In this document: positions 4,869 to 62,215 of the stretch, piece after piece
Position numbering within the stretch: the first letter of the stretch is position 1
How the letters are laid out: each line of letters opens with the position of its first letter
Origin: Candidatus Woesearchaeota archaeon
GTDB lineage: Archaea; Nanobdellota; Nanobdellia; UBA10117; ARS21
Direction of reading: 5' to 3'
NCBI GenBank assembly: GCA_964344705.1
Contig: CAYFOG010000003.1
Location: forward strand, 16,715 to 80,714
Length of the DNA stretch: 64,000 bases
The notes under the pieces: generated by a model
What the model was told of the DNA's origin: nothing
The model's database searches: none
The model's input: only the letters and a program-made list of their open reading frames with translations
Position numbers and translations under genes: made by a program

Positions 4869-5138
4869 TTATCTTCTCGCTCGACGTGCTGTTGTTCGAC
4901 GGGCAGCTGATGCTCGTCTTCTAGCAGTTGTTCTTCGTGCAGCAGTGGTTCTTCGTGCGGTGGATGTTCGTCTCTTAGCTGTTGTTCGTCGTGCACTTGT
5001 TCGTCTTGCCGCTGTAGAACGTCGAGCCGTTGTTCGTCGTCTTGCTGTTGTTCTTTTTGCAGCTGTTCGTCTTGAACGAGTTCTTCTTGAACTGCCTGCA
5101 GAAGATCTTCCGAGAAGTCTTCTTAGAAGTGATCTCAT
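4869..5138 (-). CDS. arginine-rich low-complexity protein, (A-R-R-T-T)n pentapeptide repeats, 89 aa, predicted strongly basic
   Basis: The ORF is encoded by a GC-rich degenerate 15-nt tandem repeat. TTTTATATT (TATA-like) lies 26-34 bp upstream of the ATG on the minus strand, compatible with a leaderless archaeal promoter. Confidence 0.45.
   Translation of the reverse strand: MRSLLRRLLGRSSAGSSRRTRSRRTAAKRTTARRRTTARRSTAARRTSARRTTAKRRTSTARRTTAARRTTARRRASAARRTTARRARR
4880..5110. repeat. GC-rich degenerate 15-nt tandem repeat (about 15 units; plus-strand consensus near GCTGTTGTTCGTCGT)
   Basis: Visible periodicity (gttgttcgtcgt / gttcttcgtgc / gttcgtcttg ...) in an otherwise AT-rich divergent intergenic region. 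Confidence 0.7.
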
Positions 5139-14164: not shown

Positions 14165-15646
14165 ATGGTTGATTATCTTCGTAGAGTCTTAAAGGGCGGA
14201 TCTTACTATTTTATTGGATTGATTATTGCCGGAATTGTTGCATATACTTCTCGAGTTGTGCTGGTTCGAAGTTTGGCTCCTGAGGACTATGGTTTATTTG
14301 CTGCAATGTTTACTGCCATTGCATTTTTTTTGTTTTTTAGGAATTTCGGATTGAATGTTTCTATTGGAAAATTTATCCCTCAATTTAAAGTTAGGAGAAA
14401 ATATTCTGAAATCAAAACTTCAGTAATATCAGTATTATTCTTTCAATTATTAATTTCAAGTTTGTTTGTTGTTCTGTTTTGGTTGAGTGCAGACTTCTTA
14501 GCTTTGAATTATTTCAAAGATGCTAGAGCAAGTTTTCTAATTCGTGTGTTCTCATTTTATTTTATTACAAGTATATTTTTCAAGAATCTCTCTTCATTCT
14601 TCAAAGGTTTTCAAAAGAATCGATTACAATCTTTGGTTGAACCGATAAAAAATATTAGCATACTTACAATGATTGTAATTTTTCTTTACTTGGGTTATGG
14701 TGTTCTTGCTCCAATTCTTGCTTATGTTTTTGCAGGCCTGGTTTTATTGTTACTATTTATTTATCCAGTTTTTAAGACATTCAATTTCAGGAGGTATCCT
14801 TTCAAAGAGTTGAGCGTGTTCAAACGAATGTTTCTATTTGGTCTTCCAGTAATGATGACTGGTGTTGGAAACAAATTTGTTAGTTATTTTGACACTTTGA
14901 TGCTGACTTATTTTTCGAGCTTGGCTGAAGTTGGAGCATATAATATTGTTCTTCCAACAGCATTGCTTTTTATGTTGCCTGCCTCGGCGATTGGTGCGGT
15001 CTTTATGCCGTTAATTTCTGAATTGTCTGCACGCAAAGATTTTGAACGTGTTAAAGTTGGCATGAGTTTGTTGTACAGATATTTGTACATGTTTAGCGCT
15101 CCAATAATTTTTAGCTTATTTATCTTCGCAGATATTCTTATTGAAAAATTGTTTGGTCCGGGTTATTTAATTGGTATTTTGGCATTTAGAATTTTGTTAG
15201 TTGGAGTTCTGTTCAATATGTTGTCTGAATTGAATAATCAATATCTGATTGGTACTGGTTGCCCTAAGAAAGTATTTTGGGTTGTATTCTTTGGATCGGT
15301 TCTCAATGTTGGTTTGAATATCTTCTTAATTCCTGTTTACGGAATTTCTGGTGCAGCAGTTGCTACCAGTTTGAGTTATCTTTTGATGTTTTCCTTATCG
15401 ACTGCCAAAGTTATTCGTGGAACTAGAATGAAACTTCCAATATTCAACTGGTTTGCACTAATACTTGGTTTGATGGCTTTTATTGGTGTGGTGTATTTCA
15501 TTAAAGGTCTAATTTCTTGGAATGTGTGGTTGGAAGGTATTGTTTCATTATCTATCGGATATGTTGTTTATTTGTATGTTTTGAAGATTCTAGGTATTTT
15601 GAATGTTGAAGAAATTATGTCGTTTGTTCGAAGAATTACTAGTTAG
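14165..15646 (+). CDS. Wzx/RfbX-type oligosaccharide flippase (MOP superfamily)
   Basis: 493 aa with about 12-14 TM, polysaccharide biosynthesis protein-like. Confidence 0.65.
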   Translation: MVDYLRRVLKGGSYYFIGLIIAGIVAYTSRVVLVRSLAPEDYGLFAAMFTAIAFFLFFRNFGLNVSIGKFIPQFKVRRKYSEIKTSVISVLFFQLLISSLFVVLFWLSADFLALNYFKDARASFLIRVFSFYFITSIFFKNLSSFFKGFQKNRLQSLVEPIKNISILTMIVIFLYLGYGVLAPILAYVFAGLVLLLLFIYPVFKTFNFRRYPFKELSVFKRMFLFGLPVMMTGVGNKFVSYFDTLMLTYFSSLAEVGAYNIVLPTALLFMLPASAIGAVFMPLISELSARKDFERVKVGMSLLYRYLYMFSAPIIFSLFIFADILIEKLFGPGYLIGILAFRILLVGVLFNMLSELNNQYLIGTGCPKKVFWVVFFGSVLNVGLNIFLIPVYGISGAAVATSLSYLLMFSLSTAKVIRGTRMKLPIFNWFALILGLMAFIGVVYFIKGLISWNVWLEGIVSLSIGYVVYLYVLKILGILNVEEIMSFVRRITS

Positions 15647-15771
15647 TACAACTTAAGATATTTATCAGTTATGAGTTTTATATCAAAGTCTTTTGCTCGG
15701 ATAATTACTAGTTAGTACAACTTAAGATATTTATCAGTTATGAGTTTTATATCAAAGTCTTTTGCTCGGAT
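15634..15771. repeat. perfect 69-bp tandem duplication (2 units: 15634-15702 and 15703-15771) spanning a convergent gene junction
   Basis: Identical string AATTACTAGTTAGTACAACTTAAGATATTTATCAGTTATGAGTTTTATATCAAAGTCTTTTGCTCGGAT occurs twice head-to-tail. Copy 1 carries the flippase stop codon; copy 2 carries the last 10 codons and stop of the minus-strand GT4 gene. Confidence 0.9.
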
Positions 15772-35140: not shown

Positions 35141-35659
35141 TTACATCTCAAAAGATATTGAGTCTCTTCTTTGTTTTTCTATTACTTCATTTCCTTCTTT
35201 GGTTAAATAATATTTTCTTGGTCTTGTTCCGGTTGTTGCTACAAAACCTCTATATTCAAGTTCAATTAATTTGTTGCGAATAGTTCTTTCGGATTTATCT
35301 AGAGAATATGCTAATTTTAATTGAATTGGGGATACTGCAAAATGTACTGAGTCTGCTTTTCCTTGTTTGAGTAATATTAGGAATTGTAGCTCAGACATTC
35401 TGAACATTGCAGGTTTTATATTTGCGATTGGTTGTTGCGAGGTATATTTTTGAGTTGTGGAAAGTTTTGGAATTTCGTTTTTCCAATTTCCACTAATTTC
35501 CAAAGATTTTTCCAATAGTTTTTCTTGTTTTTCTTGGAGATTTTTGAGACTTTCTTGGAGATTTTTTATTGTTGTTTCACTTTGAGAAAGCTTTGATTTG
35601 AGGTGCTCTATGTCGATTTTATGGTCGTTGAGAATTTCGCGTATAGCTTTTGGAATCAT
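35141..35659 (-). CDS. coiled-coil + C-terminal winged-helix DNA-binding protein (the ORF track extends it to a TTG at 35782)
   Basis: C-terminal SELQFLILLKQ...ERTIRNKLIELEYRGFVATTGTRPRKYYLTKEG is a wHTH. The first ATG is at 35659, with a TTTTTATA TATA-like element about 30 bp upstream. The upstream extension is encoded by the TTTCCA repeat DNA. Confidence 0.5.
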   Translation of the reverse strand: MIPKAIREILNDHKIDIEHLKSKLSQSETTIKNLQESLKNLQEKQEKLLEKSLEISGNWKNEIPKLSTTQKYTSQQPIANIKPAMFRMSELQFLILLKQGKADSVHFAVSPIQLKLAYSLDKSERTIRNKLIELEYRGFVATTGTRPRKYYLTKEGNEVIEKQRRDSISFEM

Positions 35660-35689
35660 GCGTTTTAGACTTGATAATCGTATAAAAAC

Positions 35690-35910
35690 ATTTATCGTTT
35701 GGAAAAAGGTTTCCAAAGTTTTTCCACTAATTTCCAAAGTTTTTCCACAAAAAGACCCCTTTATTTCCACTGGAGTTTCCAATTGAATTGGTTAAAAACC
35801 ACCTTACTTAATGCTTATTGTTTATTTTTTGTCCATTTTGTTTGGAAAGAGTTTTGGAAAAGTTTTGGAAAGAGTTTCCAAAGTTTTTCCACTAATTTCC
35901 ACTGTTTTCC
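35690..35910. repeat. array of TTTCCA(C/A)/GTGGAAA-type direct and inverted repeats (ORB-like), including an exact 27-bp duplicate
   Basis: TTTCCAAAGTTTTTCCACTAATTTCCA occurs exactly at 35710-35736 and 35875-35901. TTTCCACTAATTTCCAAAG also occurs at 35487-35505 inside the ORF. Multiple TTTGGAAA/TTTCCAAA 8-mers lie in both orientations between the Cas4-like and wHTH genes. Confidence 0.8.
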
Positions 35911-36620
35911 AAAGAAGTTTGTATGTGTGTGCTGGATTCTTTTTTGCTAAAACAAGTATCGTAAAATTCGCAATAATTACAGAAATATGATTCTTCTCTT
36001 ACAGGAGGTGTTGATGTTTTTAGCGCATTAGCTAATACTGTTCCTCTTGCTTCCAAATAACCCAGCATATTTCGCTTCTCAACCTCAAAGGTTTTTATCT
36101 TACTTAAGGAAAAGTAAACTATCATTAATTTTTTGACATCTTTTTGTTGGGATTCAGGTAACATTGAGAAGTATGATTGTATCTGCATAGTATGTTCGGG
36201 TTTGGGTTGTTTTGGTATTCGTTCTGTTGTCTTGAATTCATACATTATGTTGTTGGAAAATACGTCAATAAATCCTATGGCATCGAATACAGAAAAAGGT
36301 GCTTGGAGAAATACTTCATTTTCTTCTTCAGGAATGTGTTCTTGGAAGAAATTATGAATTGCGTGTCCTCTTGAAAATATCCAAAGTTTTTCCAAAGATA
36401 TTGGGATTTCTTCAGTTAAATCATAATAGGACTTTCTGAGGCAGTGTCCAGTTAGTCGAGTTACTCCAAAACGTGGTTTCTTGTTTGGATCTTTCTTTTT
36501 TCTTGGCTTTTGTCCGGCAAGAAGTGCTCTAAGGACAACATTTGGGTAGTTTTCAAAATTACTTTCTCTTACTTCATCAATATGTCTTTCCACACCATCT
36601 GGACAAATAATGTTACTCAT
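35892..36620 (-). CDS. Cas4/RecB-family PD-(D/E)xK exonuclease with 4-Cys Fe-S cluster (stand-alone; Dna2-nuclease-like)
   Basis: All Cas4 signatures are present in order: GVTRLTGHCLRKSYY (N-terminal Cys), GHAIH, AIGFIDVF (motif II Asp), YEFKT (ExK), QIQSYF (QxxxY), and C-terminal CNYCEFYDTC (CxxCx5C). Its 8-nt overlap with the PolD DP2 stop implies an operon. Confidence 0.8.
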   Translation of the reverse strand: MSNIICPDGVERHIDEVRESNFENYPNVVLRALLAGQKPRKKKDPNKKPRFGVTRLTGHCLRKSYYDLTEEIPISLEKLWIFSRGHAIHNFFQEHIPEEENEVFLQAPFSVFDAIGFIDVFSNNIMYEFKTTERIPKQPKPEHTMQIQSYFSMLPESQQKDVKKLMIVYFSLSKIKTFEVEKRNMLGYLEARGTVLANALKTSTPPVREESYFCNYCEFYDTCFSKKESSTHIQTSLENSGN

Positions 36621-39600
36621 TTATGAAACCTCCAAGACTTATTTGTTTTGTAGCATCTTTCCCGAAGACTGATTCGACTCTGCTGCTAAACAATCTTATC
36701 GATTCTCTCAAGTATTCACTAGTACCTTCAATTTCAATTAAGTTTAAAGTTGGCTCCAAATATTTCTTTACTGAACCTTCACTTATTGTGTATATTACTT
36801 TCGGTTTGTTGCATTTTACACACTTACCTGCGAGAGGTGGTCGACGATATTTTTCATTACAAGCAATGCAACGGAATCTTTGCATTGTGAACTTGCGCAT
36901 GTTTCCCTTAAGATCTCTTATGAAGTGTCCGTTGATTATTAGCTCACCAACTTTGTGTAAATCTACAGCACGTATTTTGTCAGCTAAATCGAGCTGCCCT
37001 TCCATTTTTTCCACCATTGTTGGAAGATATTTATATGCAGAAACATTTACTCCTTTGTTCATGTCTGAAACGGTATGTGTGAATCCGTGATTTTGATATT
37101 GATCTTCTTGGTCAATTACATCACCTATCGATTTAACTCTTACCTCCCAAGGATATTTCATTCCCAATGTTGCTTCATAAAACTCTAAAGGATAATCCCA
37201 AGTAATATTTAAATCGTATACTTCATCGTCAACTTCTTTGGAATTTAATATCGTAGATATAACTAAGGGTGCGTCCATGCTTCGGGCACCTCTTCGGTCA
37301 GGTAAAAAGTCTCTTGAGAAATTTAGGAATGCATCCAAAGTTAACATTATTGCTGTTTCTTCTCCATCTAAATCTCTACGTTGTGCTGCATGCCACATTG
37401 GATGGGCGATTACTCCTGAAATATTTGAGAATCCAATTATCCGACCAATGATTCCTGCTGACGTGTGTGGGGCAAGTCCGATTATTAGTTGTCCGATTAG
37501 ATCTTCATTTGTTGCGATGTTGTAGAATGCAGGCAATTTGTATAAATTCACAAGTTCTTCATCAACAAAATCTGCAACTCGTTTGAACACTGAGGTTGCG
37601 GATTCAATTCCTAAGAATTCTTCGTTCGGTAGAATTACGTCTTGAGGGAATATTTCCACCAATTGGGTTGGTTTCGTTAGTGGTTGGTTATGAACATCTT
37701 TTGTATATCCTAATTTATTTGCTTTCTTGACAGATAGTCCAATTTCTTTTGGTGTAAAGTGTGTTGCTCCCAATTCAGTTCCGTCATATCTTACTGTTCC
37801 ATCTTTGTTTACTCGGAGCGAGTGTTTGGCGCGTAGTAAACCTTTGGTTGGGTGTTCAACGTATCGGAATTTGTTCATTGTCGCTCGAACGCCTTTAATT
37901 AGTTTAGGGAAAGGTCCGTCCCATTCTTTTTTTATTCTCTTTGAAAGTTCAGGTAGAGCATACTTTCTCCTTTCGTAAGGGACGCAGGTTGGTGTTTCAG
38001 GTGTTGAATATTTTTTCTTTGTTTTGTAATCCACATATTGTTGTTGAGTATTTTCAGAATTACAGTGTTCGCACTTCTGAAATATTGTTGATTTGTTGCA
38101 GTCCAAACATTTGATTATTGGGAAGTCTGCAGTTACATGTCCAACAGTAATTGCTTCATTGAATGATCTCAATCGTCCACCTTCATTTCCAACCGGGAAT
38201 AAGAAATTTGGTGAGCCTTTCAAATCTCGCATTTTTGCCTTTTCAGGTCTTCCCATTCTTGCGCCGATTCCTGTTCCAAATTTATTTCTGAATTTTATGT
38301 CTGTTCTGAAGTGTGTATTTAGAATATTTTGATTTAATTTTGTTAAGATTATTTTATTGTCTTTTATCGTATGCGGACAACCAATTAATTCTAGCAATCT
38401 TTTTTCGGGCGCATCTGCAGGCATTTCTGATTTTATGTAATTTTGAAGTTGGATTTTTTGTTTTTCTTGGAGAGCGTCTAAATAGAATGTGAACTCTGGA
38501 TGTAGGGGAATGTTAAAATCTTTTGAGAGTTTGATAGCTGTGTCAAAATTTATTTCGGGTGGGATAAACGTGTTGAAAAAATCCTTTGGTAAATTGTGAT
38601 ACGTTTTCGGGTTGTCTTTGATTGCTTTCTTCAATTCCTGCGCCCACCATTCTGGACAATATCCTGCAGGAACGAGAAAGTGTCCGTTTTCTGTGAATTC
38701 TCCCGGAGATATTAGTATGTCTCCCAAATATAATATTTCTGCGATTTCTTTTGTGAGTTCCTTTGCCTCTTCTTCGGTTTTTGGTTTGTGTACTGATCCG
38801 TCTTTAAGTTTTACAATTGGTCCTTCAATTGAATCGCAAGAAGTAAGTGAAGTTGATTTCCCGGGTCGCTCAACCCTTAGTTGTGTTCCGATAGCCAAAT
38901 AATTGTTTAAGACTTGCATTGTTATTGGAGATATTGCCCAAGATCCATGACCTGTTAATCTTGACCTTCCATATCTTTGTCTGAAGCCACCCTGTCTTAA
39001 TGGGTGTGTGAATACGGGCCGTCCTGCAACAATTTCTGCAATATATGAATAATTTGGTTTGAGTTTGTTGTTGTCCTTTTCCTCAGTTTTCTGTCCATCT
39101 GCTTGTTCATGAATTTGTTTTTTTAGCTCTTGGTAATCATTTAGCCACTGCCAGTCTAAATCAAAATCTTTGCCCCAATTATTTAGCTTTTTCATTACTT
39201 TTCCGCCTTTTAGTGGAAGCGCGTCAGTCAACATGAGCGCAACACCGCCTCGAATTCTGTCAGTTTCAATTCGTGAGAGTCCTTTGAAATTTGATACTGT
39301 TAATTCAGAAGTTGGATCTCCGTCGAGCTCCACGGGAAGATTTGAAATTATGTGTCTAATTTCTTCTTCAGTTGGTTTGTATTGTTTTCTCTCAACTCGT
39401 TCGTAATAATCCATGACTTCTGTGTACATTCTTTTGATTTCTTGAGTCGTTGGATCATATTTTTCTATTCCTTGCTTTTTTCGGACGTAATCTGCAATTA
39501 CTGTTGTGACTGCTGACGCTGTTGCTCCACCGCCTCGAATCGGTCCAGCATAGTAAAGTGCTAAATAATCCTTTCCGTCGTTTCGTTTTTTGAATTTTAC

Positions 39601-40008
39601 ATCGATTAAGCCTTCTAAAGGTGCTGAAACAACGCCTTGTGTAATGTATGCGAAGCCGGTTCTGATGCCAATATTTATTGCAGTTATTTTGTTCTCAAAT
39701 TTACAAAATTTTTCTGAGCTTATTTCATCCGCCAGAACGAGCGCTACGCGCCAATCTCCAAAACCATATTGTTTTTCAAGTTCGCTGATTCTTTCAACAA
39801 TTCCGCTTCCAATTAAATTTGGAGATATGGATCCCATGATTGCTTCAACCCTTTCTGCGACAGAAGCAGCAATTGGAATATCACATTTGGTTTGTGGGTC
39901 AATTCCTGCTTTTCTTGCTTGGTTTGCTAATTCACGTAGTTCAAGAGTTTTTGATTTGAGTGTTGAAAAATATTCTTCGATATGTTTGGGTGCAACAAGA
40001 TTTGACAT
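36613..40008 (-). CDS. polC: DNA polymerase II (PolD) large catalytic subunit DP2
   Basis: 1131 aa with the archaea-specific DP2 architecture and C-terminal zinc-ribbon cysteines (CIACNEKY...CVKCNKPK). Length indicates no intein. Confidence 0.85.
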   Translation of the reverse strand: MSNLVAPKHIEEYFSTLKSKTLELRELANQARKAGIDPQTKCDIPIAASVAERVEAIMGSISPNLIGSGIVERISELEKQYGFGDWRVALVLADEISSEKFCKFENKITAINIGIRTGFAYITQGVVSAPLEGLIDVKFKKRNDGKDYLALYYAGPIRGGGATASAVTTVIADYVRKKQGIEKYDPTTQEIKRMYTEVMDYYERVERKQYKPTEEEIRHIISNLPVELDGDPTSELTVSNFKGLSRIETDRIRGGVALMLTDALPLKGGKVMKKLNNWGKDFDLDWQWLNDYQELKKQIHEQADGQKTEEKDNNKLKPNYSYIAEIVAGRPVFTHPLRQGGFRQRYGRSRLTGHGSWAISPITMQVLNNYLAIGTQLRVERPGKSTSLTSCDSIEGPIVKLKDGSVHKPKTEEEAKELTKEIAEILYLGDILISPGEFTENGHFLVPAGYCPEWWAQELKKAIKDNPKTYHNLPKDFFNTFIPPEINFDTAIKLSKDFNIPLHPEFTFYLDALQEKQKIQLQNYIKSEMPADAPEKRLLELIGCPHTIKDNKIILTKLNQNILNTHFRTDIKFRNKFGTGIGARMGRPEKAKMRDLKGSPNFLFPVGNEGGRLRSFNEAITVGHVTADFPIIKCLDCNKSTIFQKCEHCNSENTQQQYVDYKTKKKYSTPETPTCVPYERRKYALPELSKRIKKEWDGPFPKLIKGVRATMNKFRYVEHPTKGLLRAKHSLRVNKDGTVRYDGTELGATHFTPKEIGLSVKKANKLGYTKDVHNQPLTKPTQLVEIFPQDVILPNEEFLGIESATSVFKRVADFVDEELVNLYKLPAFYNIATNEDLIGQLIIGLAPHTSAGIIGRIIGFSNISGVIAHPMWHAAQRRDLDGEETAIMLTLDAFLNFSRDFLPDRRGARSMDAPLVISTILNSKEVDDEVYDLNITWDYPLEFYEATLGMKYPWEVRVKSIGDVIDQEDQYQNHGFTHTVSDMNKGVNVSAYKYLPTMVEKMEGQLDLADKIRAVDLHKVGELIINGHFIRDLKGNMRKFTMQRFRCIACNEKYRRPPLAGKCVKCNKPKVIYTISEGSVKKYLEPTLNLIEIEGTSEYLRESIRLFSSRVESVFGKDATKQISLGGFINE

Positions 40009-40029
40009 GCTAATTTCATTATGATGATG

Positions 40030-40037
40030 TTTAAATA
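40030..40037. promoter_or_regulatory. shared, near-palindromic TATA element (TTTAAATA) for divergent PolD-DP2 and padR-like promoters
   Basis: Lies about 25 bp from the DP2 ATG (40008, minus) and about 25 bp from the PadR-like ATG cluster (40057/40060, plus). Confidence 0.35.
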
Positions 40038-40056
40038 TGATTGTGTGAAAAAGTAT

Positions 40057-40386
40057 ATGATGGGAAATGGATCTCGAGGGCGACCAACATTTAGTCCAAT
40101 AAGAGACAATCTGGTTGAACTTTTATTTTTTGTAGGTAATAGTTACGGATATGATTTGTACAAGAAATATATACAAGTCTTTCACAAAACAACTATGAGA
40201 TCAATTTATTATCATTTGAATAAAGGTGTGGAGCTTGGTGTGTTTAAGATTGACAAAGTTGAAAATATTCCGGGAAATTATTCTTGGGGCGAAGGTGTTA
40301 GACGCGTGGTGTTTGCACTTGATGAAAAAGCTCAACCTAAAAAGGATGTGCGTGTTTTGAAGCGTCTTAAAGAAATTTCTAAGTGA
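40057..40386 (+). CDS. PadR-like winged-helix transcriptional regulator (start placed at second Met cluster; track start is 40021)
   Basis: LVELLFFVGNSYGYDLYKKYIQVF...MRSIYYHLNKGVELGVF...RRVVFAL matches the PadR pattern. The earlier ATGs would overlap the divergent DP2 promoter TATA. Confidence 0.45.
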   Translation: MMGNGSRGRPTFSPIRDNLVELLFFVGNSYGYDLYKKYIQVFHKTTMRSIYYHLNKGVELGVFKIDKVENIPGNYSWGEGVRRVVFALDEKAQPKKDVRVLKRLKEISK

Positions 40387-40672
40387 AAATGATAAGACTC
40401 TGAGCCCTGTATTTCTCATGGAACTTAGTTATTGTTAATTGATTTTCATTTTATATTTTCTTTCTTTTCTATATTGAAAATAATAATATATAATATATTA
40501 ATCGTTTTGATTTTATAATTCAAATACAAGTTCTATAGGAAATAAAAGGGTAGGAGGTCTGTATTTTATAAGCAAATTTAAAAGCATAGCGGCACAGTTA
40601 TACGTTTTTGTAGAATTTTTTAGATTCTCAAACGGATAAAGTATTTTAAGCTCAGTTTCTTATGGAACTTTT
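40387..40672. promoter_or_regulatory. candidate chromosomal replication origin (oriC): AT-rich DUE-like region with flanking direct repeats, immediately upstream of cdc6/orc1
   Basis: A 286-bp non-coding, extremely AT-rich stretch (..aataataatatataatatattaat..) is bounded by TTTCTCATGGAACTTAG (about 40414) and TTTCTTATGGAACTTTT (about 40655). A GGAAATAAAAGGG element is present. Its position next to orc1 and PolD genes is the classical archaeal oriC context. Confidence 0.45.
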
Positions 40673-41950
40673 ATGAGTGATCCACAAACCAAATTGAACG
40701 ATTCAGGAATTGAAGAAAAACAAGTCACGGAAGAAGTTGAACGCACGCGAGACGAATTAGATGATTTATTCGATGATTTTGTTTCAAAAAAATCCATTTT
40801 CATCAATAAAGATGTTTTATCTATCCGCCACGTTCCCAAAACAATACCTCACCGAAAAGAACACATCAAAAAACTAGGAATGATTTTGGCACCAGCGCTT
40901 AGAAACGACAGACCTTCAAATATTTTTGTCTATGGAAAAACAGGAACTGGAAAAACTTTGTGTGTATTACACACACTGAATAGAATTGTTGACCGAATTA
41001 AGGGAACTGATTCTTCTTTATCTTTTGCATACTTAAACTGTAAATTGAAGAAAGTTGCAGATACGGAATACCGAGTCATCGCTTCCCTTGCTAAAGAATT
41101 GGGTGCCAATGTTCCAGTTACAGGTTTACCAACTGATGAAGTATACAATATTTTCTTAAAAAAACTCGATGAACAAGAACAAGTTGTTATCTTAGTATTG
41201 GACGAAATCGATAGATTAGTTAAAAAAACAGGTGACGAAATATTATATAGCTTAACTCGAATCAATTCCGAACTCAAAAAATCAAAACTTTGTTTAATAG
41301 GAATTTCAAACGATGTTCGTTTCATTGAAAATATCGATCCAAGAGTTAAGAGCTCGCTAGGTGAAGAAGAACTAATCTTCCCACCATATAATGCTCTCGA
41401 GTTAAAAGATATTTTGAGTGAGCGAGCAACAAACGCATTCGCAGAAAATTCAATTCATCCAGCAGTACTACCGAAATGTGCAGCATATGCTGCCAAAGAG
41501 CATGGTGATGCCCGACGAGCTCTTGACTTATTACGAGTTGCGGGAGAAGTTGCTGAACGAGCTGCAGCAGAAGAAGTTAAGATGGATCATATTCGCGAGG
41601 CAGAAGACAAAATCGAAAAAAATAGAATACTTGAACTAGTCAAAACGCTACCAAACCAATCAAAATTATTAATTTACTCAATATTTATTTTAAGTAAAAA
41701 TAAAACTGACAAACTCGTTACGGGAGAAATATATCAAACCTATGCCGAGTTATGTAAAATTAACGACAACTCAATTTTAACACAACGAAGAATTTCAGAT
41801 CTAATTTCAGAGTTAGATATGCTTGGTTTGATTAATGCTCGAGTAATAAGTAAAGGACGACACGGACGCACTCGCGAGATTTATTCCACAATTCCAGCAG
41901 ATTTAACTGAAATTATAACTGAAGATTTGAAAGGTGAATTAAGATTATGA
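40673..41950 (+). CDS. cdc6: Orc1/Cdc6 replication initiator (AAA+ plus C-terminal winged helix)
   Basis: Walker A VYGKTGTGKT, Walker B VLDEID, C-terminal wH; 425 aa. TATA-like gtattttaa about 30 bp upstream. Confidence 0.9.
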   Translation: MSDPQTKLNDSGIEEKQVTEEVERTRDELDDLFDDFVSKKSIFINKDVLSIRHVPKTIPHRKEHIKKLGMILAPALRNDRPSNIFVYGKTGTGKTLCVLHTLNRIVDRIKGTDSSLSFAYLNCKLKKVADTEYRVIASLAKELGANVPVTGLPTDEVYNIFLKKLDEQEQVVILVLDEIDRLVKKTGDEILYSLTRINSELKKSKLCLIGISNDVRFIENIDPRVKSSLGEEELIFPPYNALELKDILSERATNAFAENSIHPAVLPKCAAYAAKEHGDARRALDLLRVAGEVAERAAAEEVKMDHIREAEDKIEKNRILELVKTLPNQSKLLIYSIFILSKNKTDKLVTGEIYQTYAELCKINDNSILTQRRISDLISELDMLGLINARVISKGRHGRTREIYSTIPADLTEIITEDLKGELRL

Positions 41951-43317
41951 TTAACCAAGAAATCATCAAACAATTATTGGACAAAGGGATTCTACCCACA
42001 TCGGAAAATATTGAAAAGGCCACACAGGAAGTAGTAATTGTTAAACCAAAAATTGATGATTTGCGTGCTCGTTTGAAGATTGTCAAGGAATTCGACTATA
42101 AACAAAAGAAGATTACTCCGGCTGATTTTACTGAACACTATCGCGAGAGGTATAAAACTATGAAGAATATACTATTCAATCGACCTGAAGCAGCAACAGC
42201 AGTTTCAATTGACCGCGCTAAGCAAGGTTTCGGAAACGATGATCAAATTATAATTGCAATGGTTTCAGATATCAATAGAATGACTACTGGAACAATCAAA
42301 ATAACTGTAGAGGATTTAAGTGGTCAAATGGACATAATCATATCATCAAAAAACACTGATTTGATTGAGGAAGCCAAGTTTTTGACACTCGATGAAGTCC
42401 TAATTTTCAAAGGGCGAGTTATGAGAGATGTTATGTTTCTACAAGAGATAATCTTACCTGATATTCCACAACAACCAGTACAATATAGTCCTGAAGAAGT
42501 TTACGCGGTGTTTTCAGGAGACATTCATGTTGGATCGAAGCTATTCCTGCCAAAACAATTTGGTTCGTTTATAGATTGGTTAAGTGGAAAAGTTGGAAGT
42601 GAGCGTCAGAAAGAGATCGCGAAGAAGACCAAATATTTCTATATTCCTGGAGACTTGGTCGACGGTGTTGGAATTTTTCCAAGACAGAACAAAGAATTGG
42701 AAATTGGAGATTTGAGAGGGCAATACGAAGAGCTTGCAAAATATCTTGCTCGCGTGCCGAGTGACAAACAGATAATAATCTGCCCGGGAAATCACGACGC
42801 AGGCGTGCGTCTGGAAGAACCACAGCCTCGAATGAAAGATTACGCTGAATCAATTCTTGAATTACCAAATGTTACTATGGTCACAAATCCATCTTATACA
42901 AATATTCATGCGATAGATAAATACAAAGGTCAAGATGTTCTGATGTATCATGGATATTCCTTCGATAGATTAATTGATCAAGTTGAAGGTTTGCGTTTGG
43001 CAGGAGGATATGAGAAGGCAGACGAAATTCACAAGTTCTTGTTGAAACGCCGACACTTGAGCCCGACTCACAATCTAAATTTAACAATTCCAATGAAGCA
43101 AGATCCGCACGCAATTACACAAATTCCAGACATTATGGTTTCAGGTCATATTCACAAAGCAAATATTGGGAATTATAAAAACACAGTTTCGATTTCCGGA
43201 AGCTGCTGGCAATCAGTTACAGACTTTCAATTGAAATTTGGTCATGTCCCCGATCCAGGAATGATTCCAATCATGAATCTGAAAACACGAAAGTCAAACA
43301 TGCTTAGCTTCAAGTAG
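41947..43317 (+). CDS. polB2: DNA polymerase II (PolD) small subunit DP1 (calcineurin-like phosphoesterase, 3'-5' exonuclease)
   Basis: Phosphoesterase motifs GDIHVGS, GDLVDG and PGNHDA; N-terminal OB-fold region. 4-nt overlap with cdc6. Confidence 0.85.
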   Translation: MINQEIIKQLLDKGILPTSENIEKATQEVVIVKPKIDDLRARLKIVKEFDYKQKKITPADFTEHYRERYKTMKNILFNRPEAATAVSIDRAKQGFGNDDQIIIAMVSDINRMTTGTIKITVEDLSGQMDIIISSKNTDLIEEAKFLTLDEVLIFKGRVMRDVMFLQEIILPDIPQQPVQYSPEEVYAVFSGDIHVGSKLFLPKQFGSFIDWLSGKVGSERQKEIAKKTKYFYIPGDLVDGVGIFPRQNKELEIGDLRGQYEELAKYLARVPSDKQIIICPGNHDAGVRLEEPQPRMKDYAESILELPNVTMVTNPSYTNIHAIDKYKGQDVLMYHGYSFDRLIDQVEGLRLAGGYEKADEIHKFLLKRRHLSPTHNLNLTIPMKQDPHAITQIPDIMVSGHIHKANIGNYKNTVSISGSCWQSVTDFQLKFGHVPDPGMIPIMNLKTRKSNMLSFK

Positions 43318-43332
43318 TTATTTATACTTTAA

Positions 43333-44166
43333 TTGCTTGGAAAGAACATGTTCCCGTTGTTCGGATTTGTTATACATGTAGCTTTATTTGCAGCCGTACA
43401 AATTCTAGGAATTTTTACTGGATTAAATGCTTTAAAAATATTAGATAGTTCTTCCACAGCTATTCAAGAAGTTCCACTATCCGCAACAATATTGTCTTTT
43501 CTGATTGCATTTAGTTTATTATTTTTGCTTTTGAGATTTTCAGGTAAGTTTAATTTGTTCAAATACTTCTTTTATTTTCTAATTATAATTGGAAGTAAGC
43601 TCGTATTTGAAGCTTTCTTTGCACCACTGATTGCAAACATTCTAACGTTATCTTTATTGGCGCTGTTTTTATTTTACAAATCTTTACTAGTCCATAACTT
43701 AACTTTAGGAATCACCATTGCTGGAGTGGCAGTCAGTTTAGGTTTGAGTTTCAGCTTTTCAACAGTGTTATTTTTGATAGGAATATTTTCATTCTATGAT
43801 GTTTTGGCAGTTTATAGAAGTTCACACATGATCAATTTGTTCAAAGGAATGGCCAAGAAAGGAGTTATTCTTGCAGTTATGGTTCCTCAACATTTAAGCA
43901 AAATCAGTGCTAAATCAAATGAGTTCAAGCCAGGACAAGGCGTCTTTGTTTTAGGCACAGGAGATTTAGCATTTCCATTATTTCTTGCAGTTAGCGCATT
44001 AAAGTTTTCAGTTGTTAGTGCTTGGTTTATTGCGAGCGGAGCAATTTTTGGATCTGCACTTGTTTATTATCTTTTGAATACTCAGAAATCAAATAGAGCA
44101 ATGCCAGCATTACCGCCAATTGCGCTTTGTAGCGTGCTAGGATTCTTACTGAGTTTGGTTGTTTAA
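43333..44166 (+). CDS. presenilin/signal-peptide-peptidase homolog (A22 intramembrane aspartyl protease, PSH-like)
   Basis: The YD (FSFYDVLAVY), GxGD (LGTGDLAFP) and PAL (AMPALPP) motifs are present in the correct order within a roughly 9-TM protein. Confidence 0.7.
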   Translation: MLGKNMFPLFGFVIHVALFAAVQILGIFTGLNALKILDSSSTAIQEVPLSATILSFLIAFSLLFLLLRFSGKFNLFKYFFYFLIIIGSKLVFEAFFAPLIANILTLSLLALFLFYKSLLVHNLTLGITIAGVAVSLGLSFSFSTVLFLIGIFSFYDVLAVYRSSHMINLFKGMAKKGVILAVMVPQHLSKISAKSNEFKPGQGVFVLGTGDLAFPLFLAVSALKFSVVSAWFIASGAIFGSALVYYLLNTQKSNRAMPALPPIALCSVLGFLLSLVV

Positions 44167-44813
44167 TGTTCACCTTCAATATCTAAAAGTTCACGAATAA
44201 GTTTTGCTTTCTTTGGACCGAGTTTGTCAATTTTTGTCAAATCTTCTTCAGTGGCATTTAGTAAACTAATTGGCGATTTGAATTCCTTCAACAGAGATTT
44301 TGCAAGTTTTGGCCCAACAAGAGGAAGACCTTCCACCAAAAATTGTTGCTGTTCTTCAATCGACCAAGTTCGTTTCGATCCTCGAAGTGAAATTTCTTTA
44401 TTATTTTCAAGCTGCTCTCGTTTTGCAAGTGAAATTAACAAGTTTACAGTCTCTTCAGTATCTTGTGAAAATAAGAAAGGAATTTGATAGTCCAAAGTTA
44501 GTGAAAGCATCGCTGCCCTGATGGCATTTGGATGAACATTCCGAATTTCAAAAATATTTTGAATATCTCCTTCAATAATGTAAAGCGGTTTTTGAAAATT
44601 TTCTCGCAGTTCTTTTGCTTGCGTGAATAATCGTCCATCAACTAACGAGTTAACAAAGTCTGGAACTTTCTTCAATTCTACAACACATTCGTTTGAGAGA
44701 ATAAAATCTCCAACTTCTAAAGCTTTAGTTTCTATTTGAATATCTTTTTCATAGAGATATCTAGGCAATTGACCTTTGTTCTCTCTGTGATCAACAATTA
44801 TCTTAAGATCCAT
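44163..44813 (-). CDS. hef: Hef/XPF-family ERCC4 nuclease domain + tandem HhH (C-terminal half of Hef as a separate ORF)
   Basis: ERCC4-like core (VDHREN...GDFIL...VELKK) and C-terminal HhH2 (LPLVGPKLAKSLL...IDKLGPKKAKLIRELL). The start overlaps the upstream helicase ORF by 11 nt in a different frame. Confidence 0.7.
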   Translation of the reverse strand: MDLKIIVDHRENKGQLPRYLYEKDIQIETKALEVGDFILSNECVVELKKVPDFVNSLVDGRLFTQAKELRENFQKPLYIIEGDIQNIFEIRNVHPNAIRAAMLSLTLDYQIPFLFSQDTEETVNLLISLAKREQLENNKEISLRGSKRTWSIEEQQQFLVEGLPLVGPKLAKSLLKEFKSPISLLNATEEDLTKIDKLGPKKAKLIRELLDIEGEH

Positions 44814-46254
44814 TTTCGAGGAGTTCTTTCATTCGACGTTCTTTATGGTATGAGACCCAGTAGTATTTTTCGTCAATTGTGTCCTTTGTTATTAACATAT
44901 ATACCTTGCCAATGTTCACTCTTCCAATTCTTCCTCTTCGTTGTATGGTTCTTAATGCCGAGGGAACTGGCTCAAAGAAAATTCCAATATCTGCGTTTTC
45001 AATGTGAAGACCTTCTTCACTTACTGATGTTGCAACCAAAACATTAAATTCGCCATCTTTGAATTTTTCTAAAGTTTCAATTTGTTTCTTTTGACTCATA
45101 CCTTCCTTTTGACCAACAAATGCTTTTGCGCTACTTCGCGTATGGAGATTAATTTGCTCCGTTAGAAATTCAACAGTTTTTCTGAGTTGTGAGAAAATTA
45201 TAATTTTTTCATTTTTATTTTGTGTCAGTTCCAAGACTTTTGAAATTTTAGGATGTTCAATACCTTCATCCACTAAATTTTGCGCAGTTATTTTTGCGCG
45301 CTTGAAATCCCACTCATTAATAATTCTTTGAGAAGCTTTGGTTGATTTGGCTTGTGACTCAATCTTTTCTAATGCTTTACTGAAAGTATGAAGATTTTGG
45401 GTTTCAAGAGTTTCAATTAAATGTAATAGTTTGATTAATACGGTTAGTTCAGAAACTAGAAAATAAGTGTCTGGTCCTTTCTGTCTTTGTGAAAAAAGTG
45501 CGCGCTGAGTTTTCAGCAATTCAACCTTTCTTAGATGCGAAATGTCCTGACTTTTTATTGCGCCCCTTCCGTACAGAAGGTTGACATGTTTTTTGAGTAT
45601 ATTTTGAAGATAAGCTTTGACTTTTTTGTAATCAGCAGGAAGTTCAACCATCATTCGTTCAATCTCCTTTTTCTTGAGATGTTTTTTGAGATGCGGATTT
45701 TCTTCAGTAAGCAATTCAAAATTGTCAATGAATAAATTTTGCTTTATTTCATCTAATCTTTGCTGATCTGAAGCAGGACTTGCGGAAAGTGCAAGTATTT
45801 GTGAAGTTTCACTAAACTGTTTTGCAAGCCAAACGTAAGCGTAGTCTCCAGTTGCGCGATGAGCTTCGTCAAAAATTGCAAGTGAGATGTCTTGTGGTTT
45901 GAAATATCGTTTGATGAGGTCTGACTCGATTGTTTGAGGTGTAGCACAAATTATTTCCGAAGTTTTCCAGAGTTCCTTTCTTTGTGAAGGTGGAATTGCA
46001 CCAGTTAAATGTATTATTTTTTCATCCGGTTGAAAATATTCTTTGAAAGATTTCTCGTGCTGTACTGTGAGAGGTTTTGTTGGAGCCATAATTAAGATTT
46101 TACCTTTGTCCATGTTGAGAGATGCCAAAGCGATGGCGACAATGGTTTTACCTGCACCTGTTGGCAAAACAACGAATGAATTTTTGTCCACAATTTTTCC
46201 CAAAATTTGCTCTTGATAAGTTCTGAGCTTAAGTTTATCCTTTAGAAATTGCAT
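44803..46254 (-). CDS. hef: Hef-family SF2 helicase domain (DEAH box) as a separate ORF
   Basis: Walker A VLPTGAGKT, DEAH box FDEAHRATG, helicase C motifs (QRRGRIGR); 483 aa. Confidence 0.75.
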   Translation of the reverse strand: MQFLKDKLKLRTYQEQILGKIVDKNSFVVLPTGAGKTIVAIALASLNMDKGKILIMAPTKPLTVQHEKSFKEYFQPDEKIIHLTGAIPPSQRKELWKTSEIICATPQTIESDLIKRYFKPQDISLAIFDEAHRATGDYAYVWLAKQFSETSQILALSASPASDQQRLDEIKQNLFIDNFELLTEENPHLKKHLKKKEIERMMVELPADYKKVKAYLQNILKKHVNLLYGRGAIKSQDISHLRKVELLKTQRALFSQRQKGPDTYFLVSELTVLIKLLHLIETLETQNLHTFSKALEKIESQAKSTKASQRIINEWDFKRAKITAQNLVDEGIEHPKISKVLELTQNKNEKIIIFSQLRKTVEFLTEQINLHTRSSAKAFVGQKEGMSQKKQIETLEKFKDGEFNVLVATSVSEEGLHIENADIGIFFEPVPSALRTIQRRGRIGRVNIGKVYMLITKDTIDEKYYWVSYHKERRMKELLENGS

Positions 46255-59884: not shown

Positions 59885-62215
59885 TTAGAACCATTGGTCA
59901 AGTCCTGTATTAAGGTTTTTGATTTGCTCCTCTGAATAACCAAAGAGTTCAAGAATTTTATATGTTGCGCCAATTACTTGATTGTTGATATAATAATCTT
60001 CATCAATTTCTTCTATTTTTGTTTGTTCAGGTAGTTTTACTCTATCACTAATTCGTTTTGAAATTCCCTTAGTGACGACATAATTCACAATCGTTCCTGC
60101 TCCAACTTTAATTCCACTTTGAGCTAATAATTCTCCTGCTGCAACTTGCGGTCCGCGCGTTTTATATTCATGCAGTTGTTTTGTCAATCTGTTTGAAATT
60201 ATTAAATCCCGAATATCTATGTTTTTACTTCTAACATTTGCAATTATTTCTTGTATTTTTTCCAATGCTGGCTTTCCATCAACTTCAGTTAGAATTTTAT
60301 TAAGTGTTTCAACTTGTGCTTTTTGTGCGAGCTTTGACCAATCCCCTCTCCGAGACTCCAAACCCTTTACAATTAATTTATCGTTTTGATCCAATAAAGC
60401 ATACCTCTTTTTTGCACCCGCACCAGAACCTTTCTTCTCAAGAAATACTCCAGACTTGAACAAACCTTCTTCTTCAAGTTCCATTGGGTTTGGAAGGAGT
60501 TTATTTGCCTCGACTTTGAAGTCATCCATTGAATCAGAATCGATTAGGAATACAGAATCAGTATCTCCATAGATTACTTTTATATCATGTTTTTCTGCCA
60601 AGTCAATTGTGTTGTGAATATATTTTCTTCCCATTGCAGTTATTGATCGTGCGCAATCCAAAGAGTACCATCTCGCACCAAAGAATGCTAAGTATCCGTA
60701 GAAAGAATTAGCAAGAATTTTTAGTCCGTATGATTCTGCATCTAAAGTCCTATACTCATCTGAATCTTTCTTATATTTCTTTAGTTCATATTTCACTTCA
60801 AATCTTCGAGTAATTATTCTCTCAATTAGTTCCGGCACGAAACCTTTCTTAGATTTATCAAAAAACACTGCTTTATCAGGAAGATTTATTTTTTCTTCAT
60901 CACTCCCTTTGAATTTCATAGTATACTTATCGATGTTGTGAGCAATCAGAATTGTCGGATACAAACTTCGGAAGTCAAAAACTCTAACATCTTTGTAAAC
61001 TCCCGGTGTTGGCTGATACACAAATGCACCTTCTGCTTGTGTCGCACGTCTTTTTATTATTTCATCATTTGAAGGACGATTTTCAATTATTCTATTCTGC
61101 TCAATTGCACTTTTGATTATGAACTGTTCTACAAGTCTACCATATCTCATTCGAGTTACATCAAACAAAGGTAGTCCTGTGAATTTTGAAAATTGTAATG
61201 CGATGGGCAATATTTTCTCAGCAAGCAAATAAGTTAGTTTGGAATCTAATAAATTATATTCCGAAAATCGATTCATATTTTCATCGCTTTTATCTAACCA
61301 TGCTTCATGAGGTAAAACTCCCAGTTCTAGTTTTTTCTGTCCCAAAATTTCTTCAGATACATTATCTAAAGAAAGTGAACTTGTTTTCAGTTTCGGAGCC
61401 AAGACATTTCGAATAAAAATATATGCGTCCAAATGAGTTATCCCATTTATTTTTACAGGTCTGGCGTTTCTGGTTCCACGCGTAAAAATTGGTTCTTCAT
61501 TTAATGGCGCCAAAGTTAGTTTTACTTTATTTTTCGCTGCACGCTCTTTAATAAACCACAAGTCAAATATATCTGAGTTGTAACCAGTTATAATATCTGG
61601 TTTAAATTTATTTATTGTTTCTCTAAAATCTTCCAAAAGTTCTCTTTCTGAAGCGACCGAATTTATGTATTTGTGTTTTTTCTTAAAGTCTCGGATTATT
61701 GTAACTTTTTCAAAATCTTTACTATAATATGAGATTGATACAATTTTGTCAATCAAGGGATCTGGAAAATTTCCGTCACTTGTAGTCTCAATATCAAATG
61801 CAAGAATCTTTGGTTGAAAGTTTTTGTATAATTCTATTCCATTATCCAAAATTGACCGGAAAACATATGGAATGTCTGCTTCATAAACTTCTTTCACGCT
61901 TGGCAATTCACGTATTGTTTCACGGATAACTGGAACTTCTCTGGGAAAATTGACAACGATCTTCAGAAATTTAGTTTCTTTGTTTTGAAAATTTTTAATT
62001 ACCTTTTCAACCCCAACAACCTTTCTTTGTTTATCTTTGAATTCGTAAGTTAGTGCAAGAATATCCTTTTTCGCCTGCTCCAAATTAATTGGGAGCACCA
62101 TAAAATAAGGTTCTGGCGCATCAAAGTCTTCTACAATCTTTTTTCCGTCCGAAGTTTTGATTAATTTGAGATGCCGTTGGCTATCTTCTGAATAAACAAC
62201 ATCAATAATAGTCAT
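59885..62215 (-). CDS. polB: family B DNA polymerase (PolB) with 3'-5' exonuclease domain
   Basis: Exo I FDIETT, Exo II/III motifs, polymerase motif A DFRSLYPTI, motif B KILANSFYGY, motif C YGDTDS; 776 aa, no intein. Confidence 0.9.
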   Translation of the reverse strand: MTIIDVVYSEDSQRHLKLIKTSDGKKIVEDFDAPEPYFMVLPINLEQAKKDILALTYEFKDKQRKVVGVEKVIKNFQNKETKFLKIVVNFPREVPVIRETIRELPSVKEVYEADIPYVFRSILDNGIELYKNFQPKILAFDIETTSDGNFPDPLIDKIVSISYYSKDFEKVTIIRDFKKKHKYINSVASERELLEDFRETINKFKPDIITGYNSDIFDLWFIKERAAKNKVKLTLAPLNEEPIFTRGTRNARPVKINGITHLDAYIFIRNVLAPKLKTSSLSLDNVSEEILGQKKLELGVLPHEAWLDKSDENMNRFSEYNLLDSKLTYLLAEKILPIALQFSKFTGLPLFDVTRMRYGRLVEQFIIKSAIEQNRIIENRPSNDEIIKRRATQAEGAFVYQPTPGVYKDVRVFDFRSLYPTILIAHNIDKYTMKFKGSDEEKINLPDKAVFFDKSKKGFVPELIERIITRRFEVKYELKKYKKDSDEYRTLDAESYGLKILANSFYGYLAFFGARWYSLDCARSITAMGRKYIHNTIDLAEKHDIKVIYGDTDSVFLIDSDSMDDFKVEANKLLPNPMELEEEGLFKSGVFLEKKGSGAGAKKRYALLDQNDKLIVKGLESRRGDWSKLAQKAQVETLNKILTEVDGKPALEKIQEIIANVRSKNIDIRDLIISNRLTKQLHEYKTRGPQVAAGELLAQSGIKVGAGTIVNYVVTKGISKRISDRVKLPEQTKIEEIDEDYYINNQVIGATYKILELFGYSEEQIKNLNTGLDQWF

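Follow-up and report, generated by a model that had tools for sequence, protein, structure and literature searches.

The DNA analysed here (the window, within which all positions are counted) comprises 64,000 nt of a Candidatus Woesearchaeota archaeon (CAYFOG010000003.1). It contains a gene for a stand-alone Cas4-family nuclease, here called Cas4L, which overlaps the end of dp2, the gene of the large subunit of the replicative DNA polymerase PolD. Downstream of cas4L lies an array of short repeats that includes a complete origin recognition box (ORB), followed by a gene for a protein with a coiled coil and a winged helix (ccwHTH). The dp2, cas4L and ccwHTH genes, and with them every feature of the finding, are carried by the minus strand. 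On the other side of dp2, orc1/cdc6 and dp1, the gene of the small PolD subunit, form an operon (40673..43317) in which the genes overlap by 4 nt. The module had been regarded as replication-associated in an earlier reading made from the letters of this stretch (the sequence-only reading), and this setting is in agreement with the genes found 700 bp beyond dp2, which are orc1/cdc6 and dp1. The coordinates of the features are collected in Table 1.

Table 1. Features of the dp2-cas4L locus and its surroundings, with positions in the window
Feature	Position	Strand	Basis or description
Cas4L, stand-alone Cas4-family Fe-S PD-(D/E)xK nuclease, 242 residues	35892-36620	minus	Pfam, motifs, Foldseek
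PolD large subunit DP2, 1131 residues	36613-40008	minus	Pfam PolC_DP2_N, _central and _cat
dp2/cas4L junction	36613-36633	minus	8-nt overlap and Shine-Dalgarno motif, read directly from the sequence
Repeat cluster A	35843-35911	.	Minus-strand reading: four TGGAAA half-sites, then three inverted TTTCCA
Inter-cluster spacer, 61 bp	35782-35842	.	75% A+T
Repeat cluster B	35700-35781	.	Six TGGAAA half-sites (one within the ORB), 10-12 bp phasing
Full ORB, CTCCAGTGGAAATAAAGGGGTCT	35753-35775	minus	TCC...GGAAA dyad plus G-string; in cluster B
TATA-like box, TTTTTATA	35681-35688	minus	21 nt 5' of ATG 35659; same position in loci L004 and L005
ccwHTH, 172 residues	35141-35659	minus	Start by 16 homologues and independent gene calls
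Repeat cluster C	35458-35514	.	Inside the ccwHTH reading frame; five half-sites encode LEKSLEISGNWKNEIP, at the coiled coil/linker junction
Small winged-helix protein	40021-40386	plus	PadR-like by eye; between dp2 and the ORB pair upstream of orc1
Candidate oriC, inverted ORB-like pair	40401-40423; 40531-40553	minus; plus	Position weight matrix; span 40401-40553
orc1/cdc6	40673-41950	plus	Pfam Cdc6_C, Cdc6_lid and AAA domains
dp1, PolD small subunit	41947-43317	plus	Pfam Metallophos plus OB fold

The Pfam domain scan covered 38 of the open reading frames (ORFs) of the window. For the gene neighbourhoods, one genome per species (GTDB) of the Woesearchaeota and Pacearchaeota was surveyed, from which 25 loci were recovered; individual loci are referred to by L numbers. 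Cas4L homologues group closely into one family, with 57 clusters, whose members come from DPANN archaea of marine, groundwater and sediment samples.

Cas4L and its linkage to dp2

Cas4L scores 37.8 bits against the Pfam family Cas_Cas4 (PF01930 / DUF83; cut-off 22.7, E 2.5e-9), and 53 of its 57 homologues carry a precomputed match to PF01930 and/or PF12705. The residues that are invariant in 17 homologues, down to 40% identity, are C60, H89 (in RGHAIH), D119, E128-x-K130, Q146...Y150 and C214/C217/C223. These include the D, ExK and QxxxY residues of a RecB-type active site (D119, E128, K130, Q146 and Y150) and the four predicted Fe-S ligands, being C60 together with the cysteines of a C-x2-C-x5-C motif (C214, C217 and C223), which are unchanged in the 17 sequences. 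The AlphaFold2 model of Cas4L (pLDDT 79.9) matches best, when compared by Foldseek, with the chains of 4IC1 (Cas4 SSO0001; E 3.8e-8, TM-score 0.51-0.61), followed by human EXO5, AdnAB, Cas4-Cas1-Cas2 and MGME1, and then weakly by Dna2 (E 0.08). Both the hidden Markov model search and the structure prediction proposed as checks in the sequence-only reading are therefore in agreement with the Cas4/RecB membership claimed there for the 242-residue protein, all of the listed motifs being present and the Pfam threshold being passed. As judged from its sequence and its predicted fold, Cas4L is a genuine Cas4-family nuclease.

Cas4L does not have the characteristics of a Cas4 of CRISPR adaptation. 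There is no CRISPR-like array in the window and no cas domain among the 38 scanned ORFs, as the sequence-only reading had also noted, no restriction-modification (RM) or cas genes are neighbours at 28 loci, and the score of Cas4L against the NCBI Cas4 equivalog model TIGR00372 (36.7) is below its cut-off (65). When compared with the Cas4 of CRISPR systems (SSO0001, 4IC1; the type I-C Cas4-Cas1-Cas2 complex), the fold, the four cysteine ligands and the D/ExK/QxxxY residues are shared, whereas cas1, cas2 and an array are not found nearby, and about 50 extra residues precede the canonical Cas4 region (residues 1-50, window 36471-36620). In the deeper branches of the family and in distant relatives, this N-terminal extension is a four-cysteine knuckle (C-x10-C-x2-C-x2-4-C-xP), which is degenerate in the clade of the window, where three of the four cysteines are lost and C6 alone remains. 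Fusion proteins with a Cas4L domain (P0102, P0094 and others) have no Pfam partner domain, and no fusion with DP2 is found among them.

The identity of the upstream gene is well defined, since all three Pfam domains of DP2 are matched with E-values from 4e-81 to 3e-104. The ATG of Cas4L (36620-36618) falls 8 nt inside the end of dp2, confirming the overlap described before, with the overlapping sequence ATGAGTAA at 36613-36620, and a GGAGGT Shine-Dalgarno motif is found 7 nt 5' of this ATG. This arrangement suggests that the translation of dp2 and cas4L is coupled.

The gene pair is conserved well beyond the window. In 22 of the 25 species genomes dp2 is directly upstream of cas4L on the same strand, with a gap of -19 to about +115 nt; most of these pairs overlap or abut, and 13 of the 22 overlap. 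A large gap in L012 is an artefact of frame extension, the C-terminus of DP2 in reality abutting the Cas4L ATG. The overlap of stop and start codons with dp2 specifically persists down to 45% identity, and the pair spans Woesearchaeota and Pacearchaeota of marine, groundwater and sediment samples. The recurrence of a Cas4-like gene 3' of DP2 in related archaea, which the sequence-only reading had asked to be surveyed, is thus found. An assembly chimera, which that reading had named as a way in which it could fail, is ruled out by the same junctions on 18 independently assembled contigs, all with the arrangement of the window, and in related species.

The rate of change of Cas4L is also like that of its neighbour. 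Across pairs of increasing divergence, the identities of Cas4L and DP2 (in %) are 87/88, 78/80, 68/66, 59/55, 52/54 and 45/48, which is almost 1:1, whereas the identity of ccwHTH drops much faster, from 82 to 32%. Because its identity tracks that of DP2 so closely, Cas4L is seen, at the level of sequence, to behave as a housekeeping protein and not as an arms-race gene. A mobile-element or viral origin of cas4L and ccwHTH was considered and rejected, as the neighbours are core genes and viral contigs are nearly devoid of relatives: the scans of viral contigs gave no relative of ccwHTH and one distant relative of Cas4L, with 23% identity.

The family has two sorts of C-terminal tail, a very short one and a long one of low complexity. 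The PCNA-interacting peptide (PIP) box is defined here as Qxx[LIM]xx[FWY][FWY], in general located at the very C-terminus and preceded by a flexible linker. Its Qxx[LIM] part is found in the last 10 residues of 24 of the 40 distinct long tails, against 1.7 expected by shuffling (0 of 2000 shuffles reached 24), a statistic that overstates the independence of the tails, as these are phylogenetically related. Full PIP boxes are present among several tails (QSSLVRF, QKTLATIF, GLKNFF and NLNNFF). The DP2 (TKQIxLxxF/W) and PolB (GLDQWF) proteins of the same lineage also finish in PIP boxes, that of DP2 in the window being the canonical KQISLGGFINE, with the TKQIxLxxF/W tail kept in all loci. The long tail of Cas4L is accordingly a putative PCNA-docking tail, as far as its sequence can tell.

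The repeat array, ccwHTH and the candidate origin

In the region 35458-35911 there are 19 TTTCCA/TGGAAA hexamers, where 0.82 are expected per 460 bp elsewhere (Poisson P ~1e-19) and where the densest cluster elsewhere has 6. The hexamers of the array are spaced by 9-12 bp, and about 14 helically phased TGGAAA half-sites are found downstream of cas4L. In minus-strand order, the intergenic region (35660-35891) consists of cluster A, the spacer and cluster B. Cluster A contains the palindrome TTTGGAAA-CTC-TTTCCAAA, and cluster B finishes with the palindrome TTTGGAAA-CCTT-TTTCCAAA, directly 5' of the ccwHTH promoter. The spacer does not stand out by low stability, as about 10% of the 60-bp segments across the window are less stable.

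Full-length ORBs, such as those of Sulfolobus and Aeropyrum, have a G-string 3' of their dyad. The ORB of cluster B, which is the sole exact TCCAGTGGAAA in the window, has such a string (AAAGGGGT) at this position, and the same is seen in 24 related ORBs. The dyad itself corresponds to the conserved TTCC...GAA core of archaeal ORBs (Matsunaga et al. 2007, PMC1904270), most related loci having the full TTCC and the window only TCC, and CTCCAGTGGAAAT of this ORB agrees with the P. abyssi mini-ORB TTCCAGTGGAACT at 11 of 13 positions (PMC1904270). The consensus across the related loci is TTCCATCGGAAA[CT]AAAGGGGTCA. At the same intergenic position of the ccwHTH-bearing loci there are one or two near-identical ORBs together with genome-specific mini-repeats, and the array and the gene co-occur strictly, the array being present in 15 of the 15 loci with the gene and in 0 of the 10 without it. 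The 15 loci are those of 13 of the 25 species genomes, of the window and of one further metagenome genome (seen on two contigs).

In the AlphaFold2 model of ccwHTH (pLDDT 77) a coiled-coil helix (residues 4-55) is followed by a disordered linker (59-83) and a winged helix (88-152). The closest Foldseek match of the winged helix is TubR (4ASN, E 3.4e-5), MarR family proteins and AspA also being matched, and there are weak matches to the winged helix of Csa3/CasR. The start of ccwHTH is set at ATG 35659 by its homologues and by gene calls; TTG 35782 was rejected as the start, as homologues and gene calls begin at ATG 35659. Because ccwHTH starts there, the repeats at 35700-35781 are promoter-proximal and non-coding. 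The TATA-like box TTTTTATA would be the promoter of a leaderless or short-leader ccwHTH transcript. Several statements of the sequence-only reading on this region are upheld: the repeats are ORB-like, as shown by the full ORB with its G-string and by the near-identical ORBs in all 15 ccwHTH loci, the 27-bp exact duplicate is present (35709-35735 and 35874-35900), and both a coiled coil and a winged helix are seen in the model of the protein encoded 3' of the repeats. Its view that the 5' region of the winged-helix gene is built from the repeats came from a misassigned start and is abandoned, the repeats at 35700-35781 being upstream and intergenic.

The array does run into two coding sequences, because the tail of Cas4L is encoded by the first two units of cluster A (SLE[NI]SGN in the clade of the window) and a segment of ccwHTH is encoded by cluster C. 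The variable triplet of cluster C co-varies with the core of the local ORB, at the cost of an amino-acid change: it is AGT-GGAAAT in the window, ATC-GGAAAT in L001 and AAC-GGAAAT in L011 and L013. The same mini-repeat DNA, in the same frame, encodes SLENSGN of Cas4L (35892-35915) and LEISGN of ccwHTH (35480-35500).

A position weight matrix (PWM) built from the ORBs of the ccwHTH loci finds only three sites of at least 12 bits in the 64 kb, namely the ORB of the array (score 31.7) and the two members of the inverted pair upstream of orc1. This pair flanks 107 bp of 86% A+T, within which the 60 bp at 40442-40501 have the highest A+T content and the lowest thermodynamic stability of the 64 kb and are a candidate DNA unwinding element (DUE). 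Inverted pairs are found at the same place in L001, L004, L005, L007, L017 and L025, including loci without the downstream array. Both the gene orientation and the AT skew switch near 40 kb, the GC skew within the 64 kb being uninformative. Because of the inverted ORBs, the DUE-like DNA and the switch of orientation and AT skew near 40 kb, the classical oriC is most likely the region upstream of orc1 (40401-40553), where inverted ORBs, an AT-rich unwinding element and a nearby orc1 gene, which are the hallmarks of an archaeal oriC, are found together. The array lacks this combination, its ORBs being direct, its spacer 75% AT and its DNA not among the least stable segments. It was down-weighted as the primary oriC on these grounds. 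It is a second ORB cluster, beyond dp2-cas4L as seen from orc1, and the unwinding site of the origin is probably elsewhere.

This architecture can be compared with that of the Thermococcales, where Cdc6/Orc1 binds in vivo to two ORB clusters that are about 5 kb apart, at oriC and inside dp1; in Pyrococcus this second ORB/mini-ORB cluster inside dp1 is Cdc6-bound in vivo (Matsunaga et al. 2007, PMC1904270). In both cases two ORB/mini-ORB clusters, about 5 kb apart, bracket replication genes (orc1, PolD subunits), one cluster reaches into coding sequence and the TTCC...GAA core is common to both. The window differs in that its clusters bracket dp2-cas4L, not cdc6, and in that its second cluster is intergenic and in the ccwHTH ORF, tied to a lineage-specific winged-helix gene. 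A winged-helix protein with repeats inside its own ORF is also known from Sulfolobus, where WhiP binds such repeats beside oriC3 (Samson et al. 2013, PMC3607249). The ccwHTH gene, likewise beside origin-type repeats, resembles whiP in this respect as an analogy: WhiP, like the related Cdt1, has tandem winged helices, whereas the ccwHTH model has a coiled coil and one winged helix. With the TubR-tubC and AspA modules the locus shares a small winged-helix protein (27% identity to TubR over 78 residues) and phased direct repeats of about 10-12 bp, but no TubZ, ParA or ParB partner and no adjacent NTPase gene is present, the locus is chromosomal and not on a plasmid, and the likeness to the TubR fold is common to many MarR-type regulators.

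Possible roles of Cas4L and of the array

The best explanation for these observations, which when all its parts are taken jointly is judged slightly more probable than its opposite, is that a marine chromosome of Woesearchaeota type (DPANN, Nanoarchaeia) has its replication-origin island here. The likeliest oriC is flanked by orc1/cdc6-dp1 on one side and by the divergent dp2-cas4L on the other. A replisome-linked role of this solo-Cas4 is well motivated by sequence, being favoured because of the overlap with dp2, the DP2-like constraint, the PIP-like tail and the location in the origin island. It is possible that reinitiation where the stop and start codons overlap keeps the production of Cas4L in step with that of DP2, and that Cas4L is held at the fork by its PIP-like tail, via PCNA and/or PolD, where it would act as a 5'-end single-stranded DNA (ssDNA) or flap nuclease, either in the processing of Okazaki fragments and primers or in the resection of broken forks for recombination-dependent restart. 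At the array, Orc1/Cdc6 would bind the full ORB, and a dimeric ccwHTH would bind the phased half-sites, among them the ones within its own ORF. The two proteins could assemble near the origin into a nucleoprotein complex with a regulatory effect on ccwHTH and possibly on the use of the origin or on segregation. The most specific form of this proposal is considered less likely than not: Cas4L would be a true replisome component, a PCNA- and/or PolD-tethered Fe-S 5'-flap/5'-end nuclease in a fixed ratio with DP2, for a Dna2-/EXO5-like step of lagging-strand maturation or fork restart in Woesearchaeota and Pacearchaeota, and ccwHTH with its half-sites would be a lineage-specific origin-proximal initiator, regulator or partition complex acting with Orc1 at the second ORB cluster.

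Several observations weigh against these proposals. The linkage is not obligatory, as in L011, L013 and L016 dp2 is separated from cas4L by a shared inversion of the block dp2-wHTH-orc1-dp1-SPP-Hef, with its breakpoint exactly between dp2 and cas4L, and cas4L remains the neighbour of the ORB array and of ccwHTH. These compact genomes are syntenic across the whole origin island, and the adjacency may partly reflect a general conservation of gene order. A clear Shine-Dalgarno core is found in only 7 of 27 junctions, with no motif common to all. In the window, the aromatic residues of a canonical PIP box are missing from the degenerate tail of Cas4L (...IQTSLENSGN), a part of which is encoded by the repeat array. 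The Qxx[LIM] motif is absent from short-tailed members (FxRDKDL, KPKFID), and the relatedness of the tails and the low equivalog score noted above belong here as well. A link of Cas4L to PolD or PCNA is read from the genes and their sequences. With respect to the array, the region upstream of orc1 has no TGGAAA half-sites, and a spacing of 10-11 bp leaves too little room for every half-site of the array to have an Orc1 of its own. A search for more distant relatives returned three proteins, one with an informative gene context: this protein, P0088 (26% identity to Cas4L; L030 8001-8717, also L031), has an intact N-terminal four-cysteine knuckle and is encoded between a type IIG-like RM fusion and HsdR/HsdM/HsdS, a position that fits a defence ancestry.

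That Cas4L is a defence or anti-mobile-element nuclease like such RM-linked relatives, with its place after dp2 due to hitch-hiking, would explain why P0088 has the same knuckle and lies between an RM enzyme and HsdR. It would also suit the PADLOC matches of Cas4L, all of which are Cas4 models, and the observation that some DPANN solo-Cas4 genes adjoin RM genes (Hudaiberdiev et al. 2017, PMC5704561). This is nevertheless quite improbable, given that 0 of 28 loci have RM or cas neighbours, that Cas4L changes no faster than DP2 and is passed on vertically within a syntenic core island, that there are essentially no copies on viral contigs and that the PIP-like tail is absent from P0088. Cas4L could instead be a general nuclease for double-strand-break resection and recombination repair, which in these reduced genomes replaces resection of the NurA/HerA or RecB type and, without belonging to the replisome, is merely co-transcribed with dp2 in a compact island of replication and repair genes. 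The Cas4 family consists of 5'-3' ssDNA exonucleases akin to the nuclease domains of RecB, AddB and AdnAB (PMC5704561, PMC12501428), as is also seen in the fold matches. Hef, another fork-repair enzyme, is encoded in the same island, DPANN solo-Cas4 proteins are treated as uncharacterized defence or repair proteins in the literature (PMC5704561 and later work), and cas4L is retained in the three species in which the inversion breaks its linkage to dp2. The conservation of the overlap with the dp2 stop codon down to 45% identity and the strong enrichment of the C-terminal PIP-like motif speak against a repair enzyme that is only co-transcribed, and such an assignment is considered somewhat unlikely; it also overlaps with the replisome-linked role, as in archaea no clean line can be drawn between replication on the one hand and repair and fork restart on the other.

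The array (35700-35911) and ccwHTH raise a separate question, namely whether they are a functional origin or a centromere-like partition site, as a lineage-specific replicon module, and not an accessory Orc1 site. Their strict co-occurrence and joint absence from the deeper branches, the iteron-like half-sites with 10-11 bp phasing and palindromic ends, the repeats within the protein's own ORF, as in WhiP, and the lack of half-sites upstream of orc1 are all compatible with such a module, as is the fold of the winged helix, which matches best with TubR, a centromere protein that binds iterons, and also with AspA. The match is generic, however, with MarR-family proteins scoring similarly, and ccwHTH has one winged helix where WhiP and Cdt1 have two. 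No ParA, SegA, TubZ or helicase loader is adjacent, the neighbour being a TctA transporter, the spacer is not especially AT-rich, the ORBs of the array are direct and not inverted, and forks from the array would meet the transcription of dp2-cas4L head-on, so that this possibility is rather doubtful. It is very unlikely that the repeats are merely the autoregulatory operator of the ccwHTH promoter and resemble ORBs by coincidence. The palindrome and cluster B abut the TATA box and ccwHTH resembles MarR-type repressors, as would be expected of an operator, but the 21-23-bp element, with the TCC...GGAAA dyad and the AAAGGGGT G-string, is near-identical across lineages at 45-60% protein identity, the same PWM independently finds the inverted pair upstream of orc1, and at least 14 sites, with sites within two ORFs, are excessive for a simple operator.

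The replisome-linked reading of Cas4L invites a comparison with Dna2, EXO5 and MGME1, which are all among its fold matches and whose nuclease domains belong to the same superfamily; the proposed role at 5' flaps or ends would be analogous to theirs. The sequence-only reading had described Cas4L as a Dna2-like partner of PolD. The part of this description that stands is the nuclease superfamily, whereas Cas4L, with its 242 residues and its weak match to the Dna2 fold, has no SF1B helicase domain, and a flap role in preference to end resection is not supported. The term Dna2-like can be used only as a functional analogy.

A solo-Cas4 is carried by most archaea and by nearly all DPANN archaea, and what it does has been asked since at least 2017, when it was reported from most DPANN genomes (Hudaiberdiev et al. 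2017, PMC5704561). It was still called uncharacterized in the literature of 2024-2025, including work on the Solo-Cas4 of M. mazei (PMC12501428). Like these proteins, Cas4L is a PF01930 stand-alone Fe-S PD-(D/E)xK nuclease of a CRISPR-less archaeon with a small genome, vertically inherited and under purifying selection; it differs in being operonic with dp2, often with overlapping codons, and in its N-terminal cysteine-knuckle extension and PIP-like tail. The 2017 phylogenomic survey of Cas4 has no mention of a polymerase (PMC5704561), and a literature search for Cas4 together with DP2 in archaea returned only work on viruses of Asgard archaea. The component parts are of known kinds, namely the Cas4 family, PolD, ORBs and winged-helix proteins, whereas no earlier description of the dp2-linked subfamily, of its PIP-like tail or of two ORB clusters combined with ccwHTH is apparent in the literature searched. 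A subfamily that is locked to a polymerase gene, evolves at the same pace and carries a putative PCNA-type docking motif makes the question of solo-Cas4 function biochemically testable. If Cas4L is a replisome component, this would be the first defined cellular role for a DPANN solo-Cas4. The subfamily also bears on the evolutionary links between the nucleases of CRISPR adaptation, RM-linked nucleases and those of replication and repair (Dna2, EXO5), and the locus allows oriC of uncultured Woesearchaeota to be predicted explicitly, two ORB clusters and a winged-helix protein that may be origin-associated being part of the prediction.

Other genes and repeats of the window

The small winged-helix gene between dp2 and the candidate oriC is kept in about 20 related loci, as found by tblastn, and its protein has no match in Pfam or NCBIfam. 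Its annotated ATG is 12 nt from the ATG of dp2, and M13 or M14 is the probable real start. Beyond dp1, Hef is split on the minus strand (44163-46254) into a helicase (44803-46254) and an ERCC4/HhH nuclease (44163-44813) in differing frames. This split is common to the clade of the window (L004-L010), whereas deeper relatives have a fused Hef of 728-742 residues. A family B DNA polymerase of 776 residues, with the PIP-like GLDQWF at its C-terminus, is encoded at 59885-62215 on the minus strand, so that the genome has both PolB and PolD.

Positions 1-30000 are occupied by a large surface-glycan island, with SecDF, STT3/AglB, NeuB, a CMP-sugar transferase, a UDP-GlcNAc 2-epimerase, several glycosyltransferases and ADP-heptose-type genes. 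Two convergent glycan-biosynthesis genes have a 69-bp tandem duplication, 94% identical, between them (15619-15756). Degenerate repeats are found at 4887-5088, as 7 copies of a 31-nt unit that are 15-54 nt apart (TRF periods 18 and 33), within an ORF of 89 residues (4869-5138) that probably encodes a low-complexity protein.

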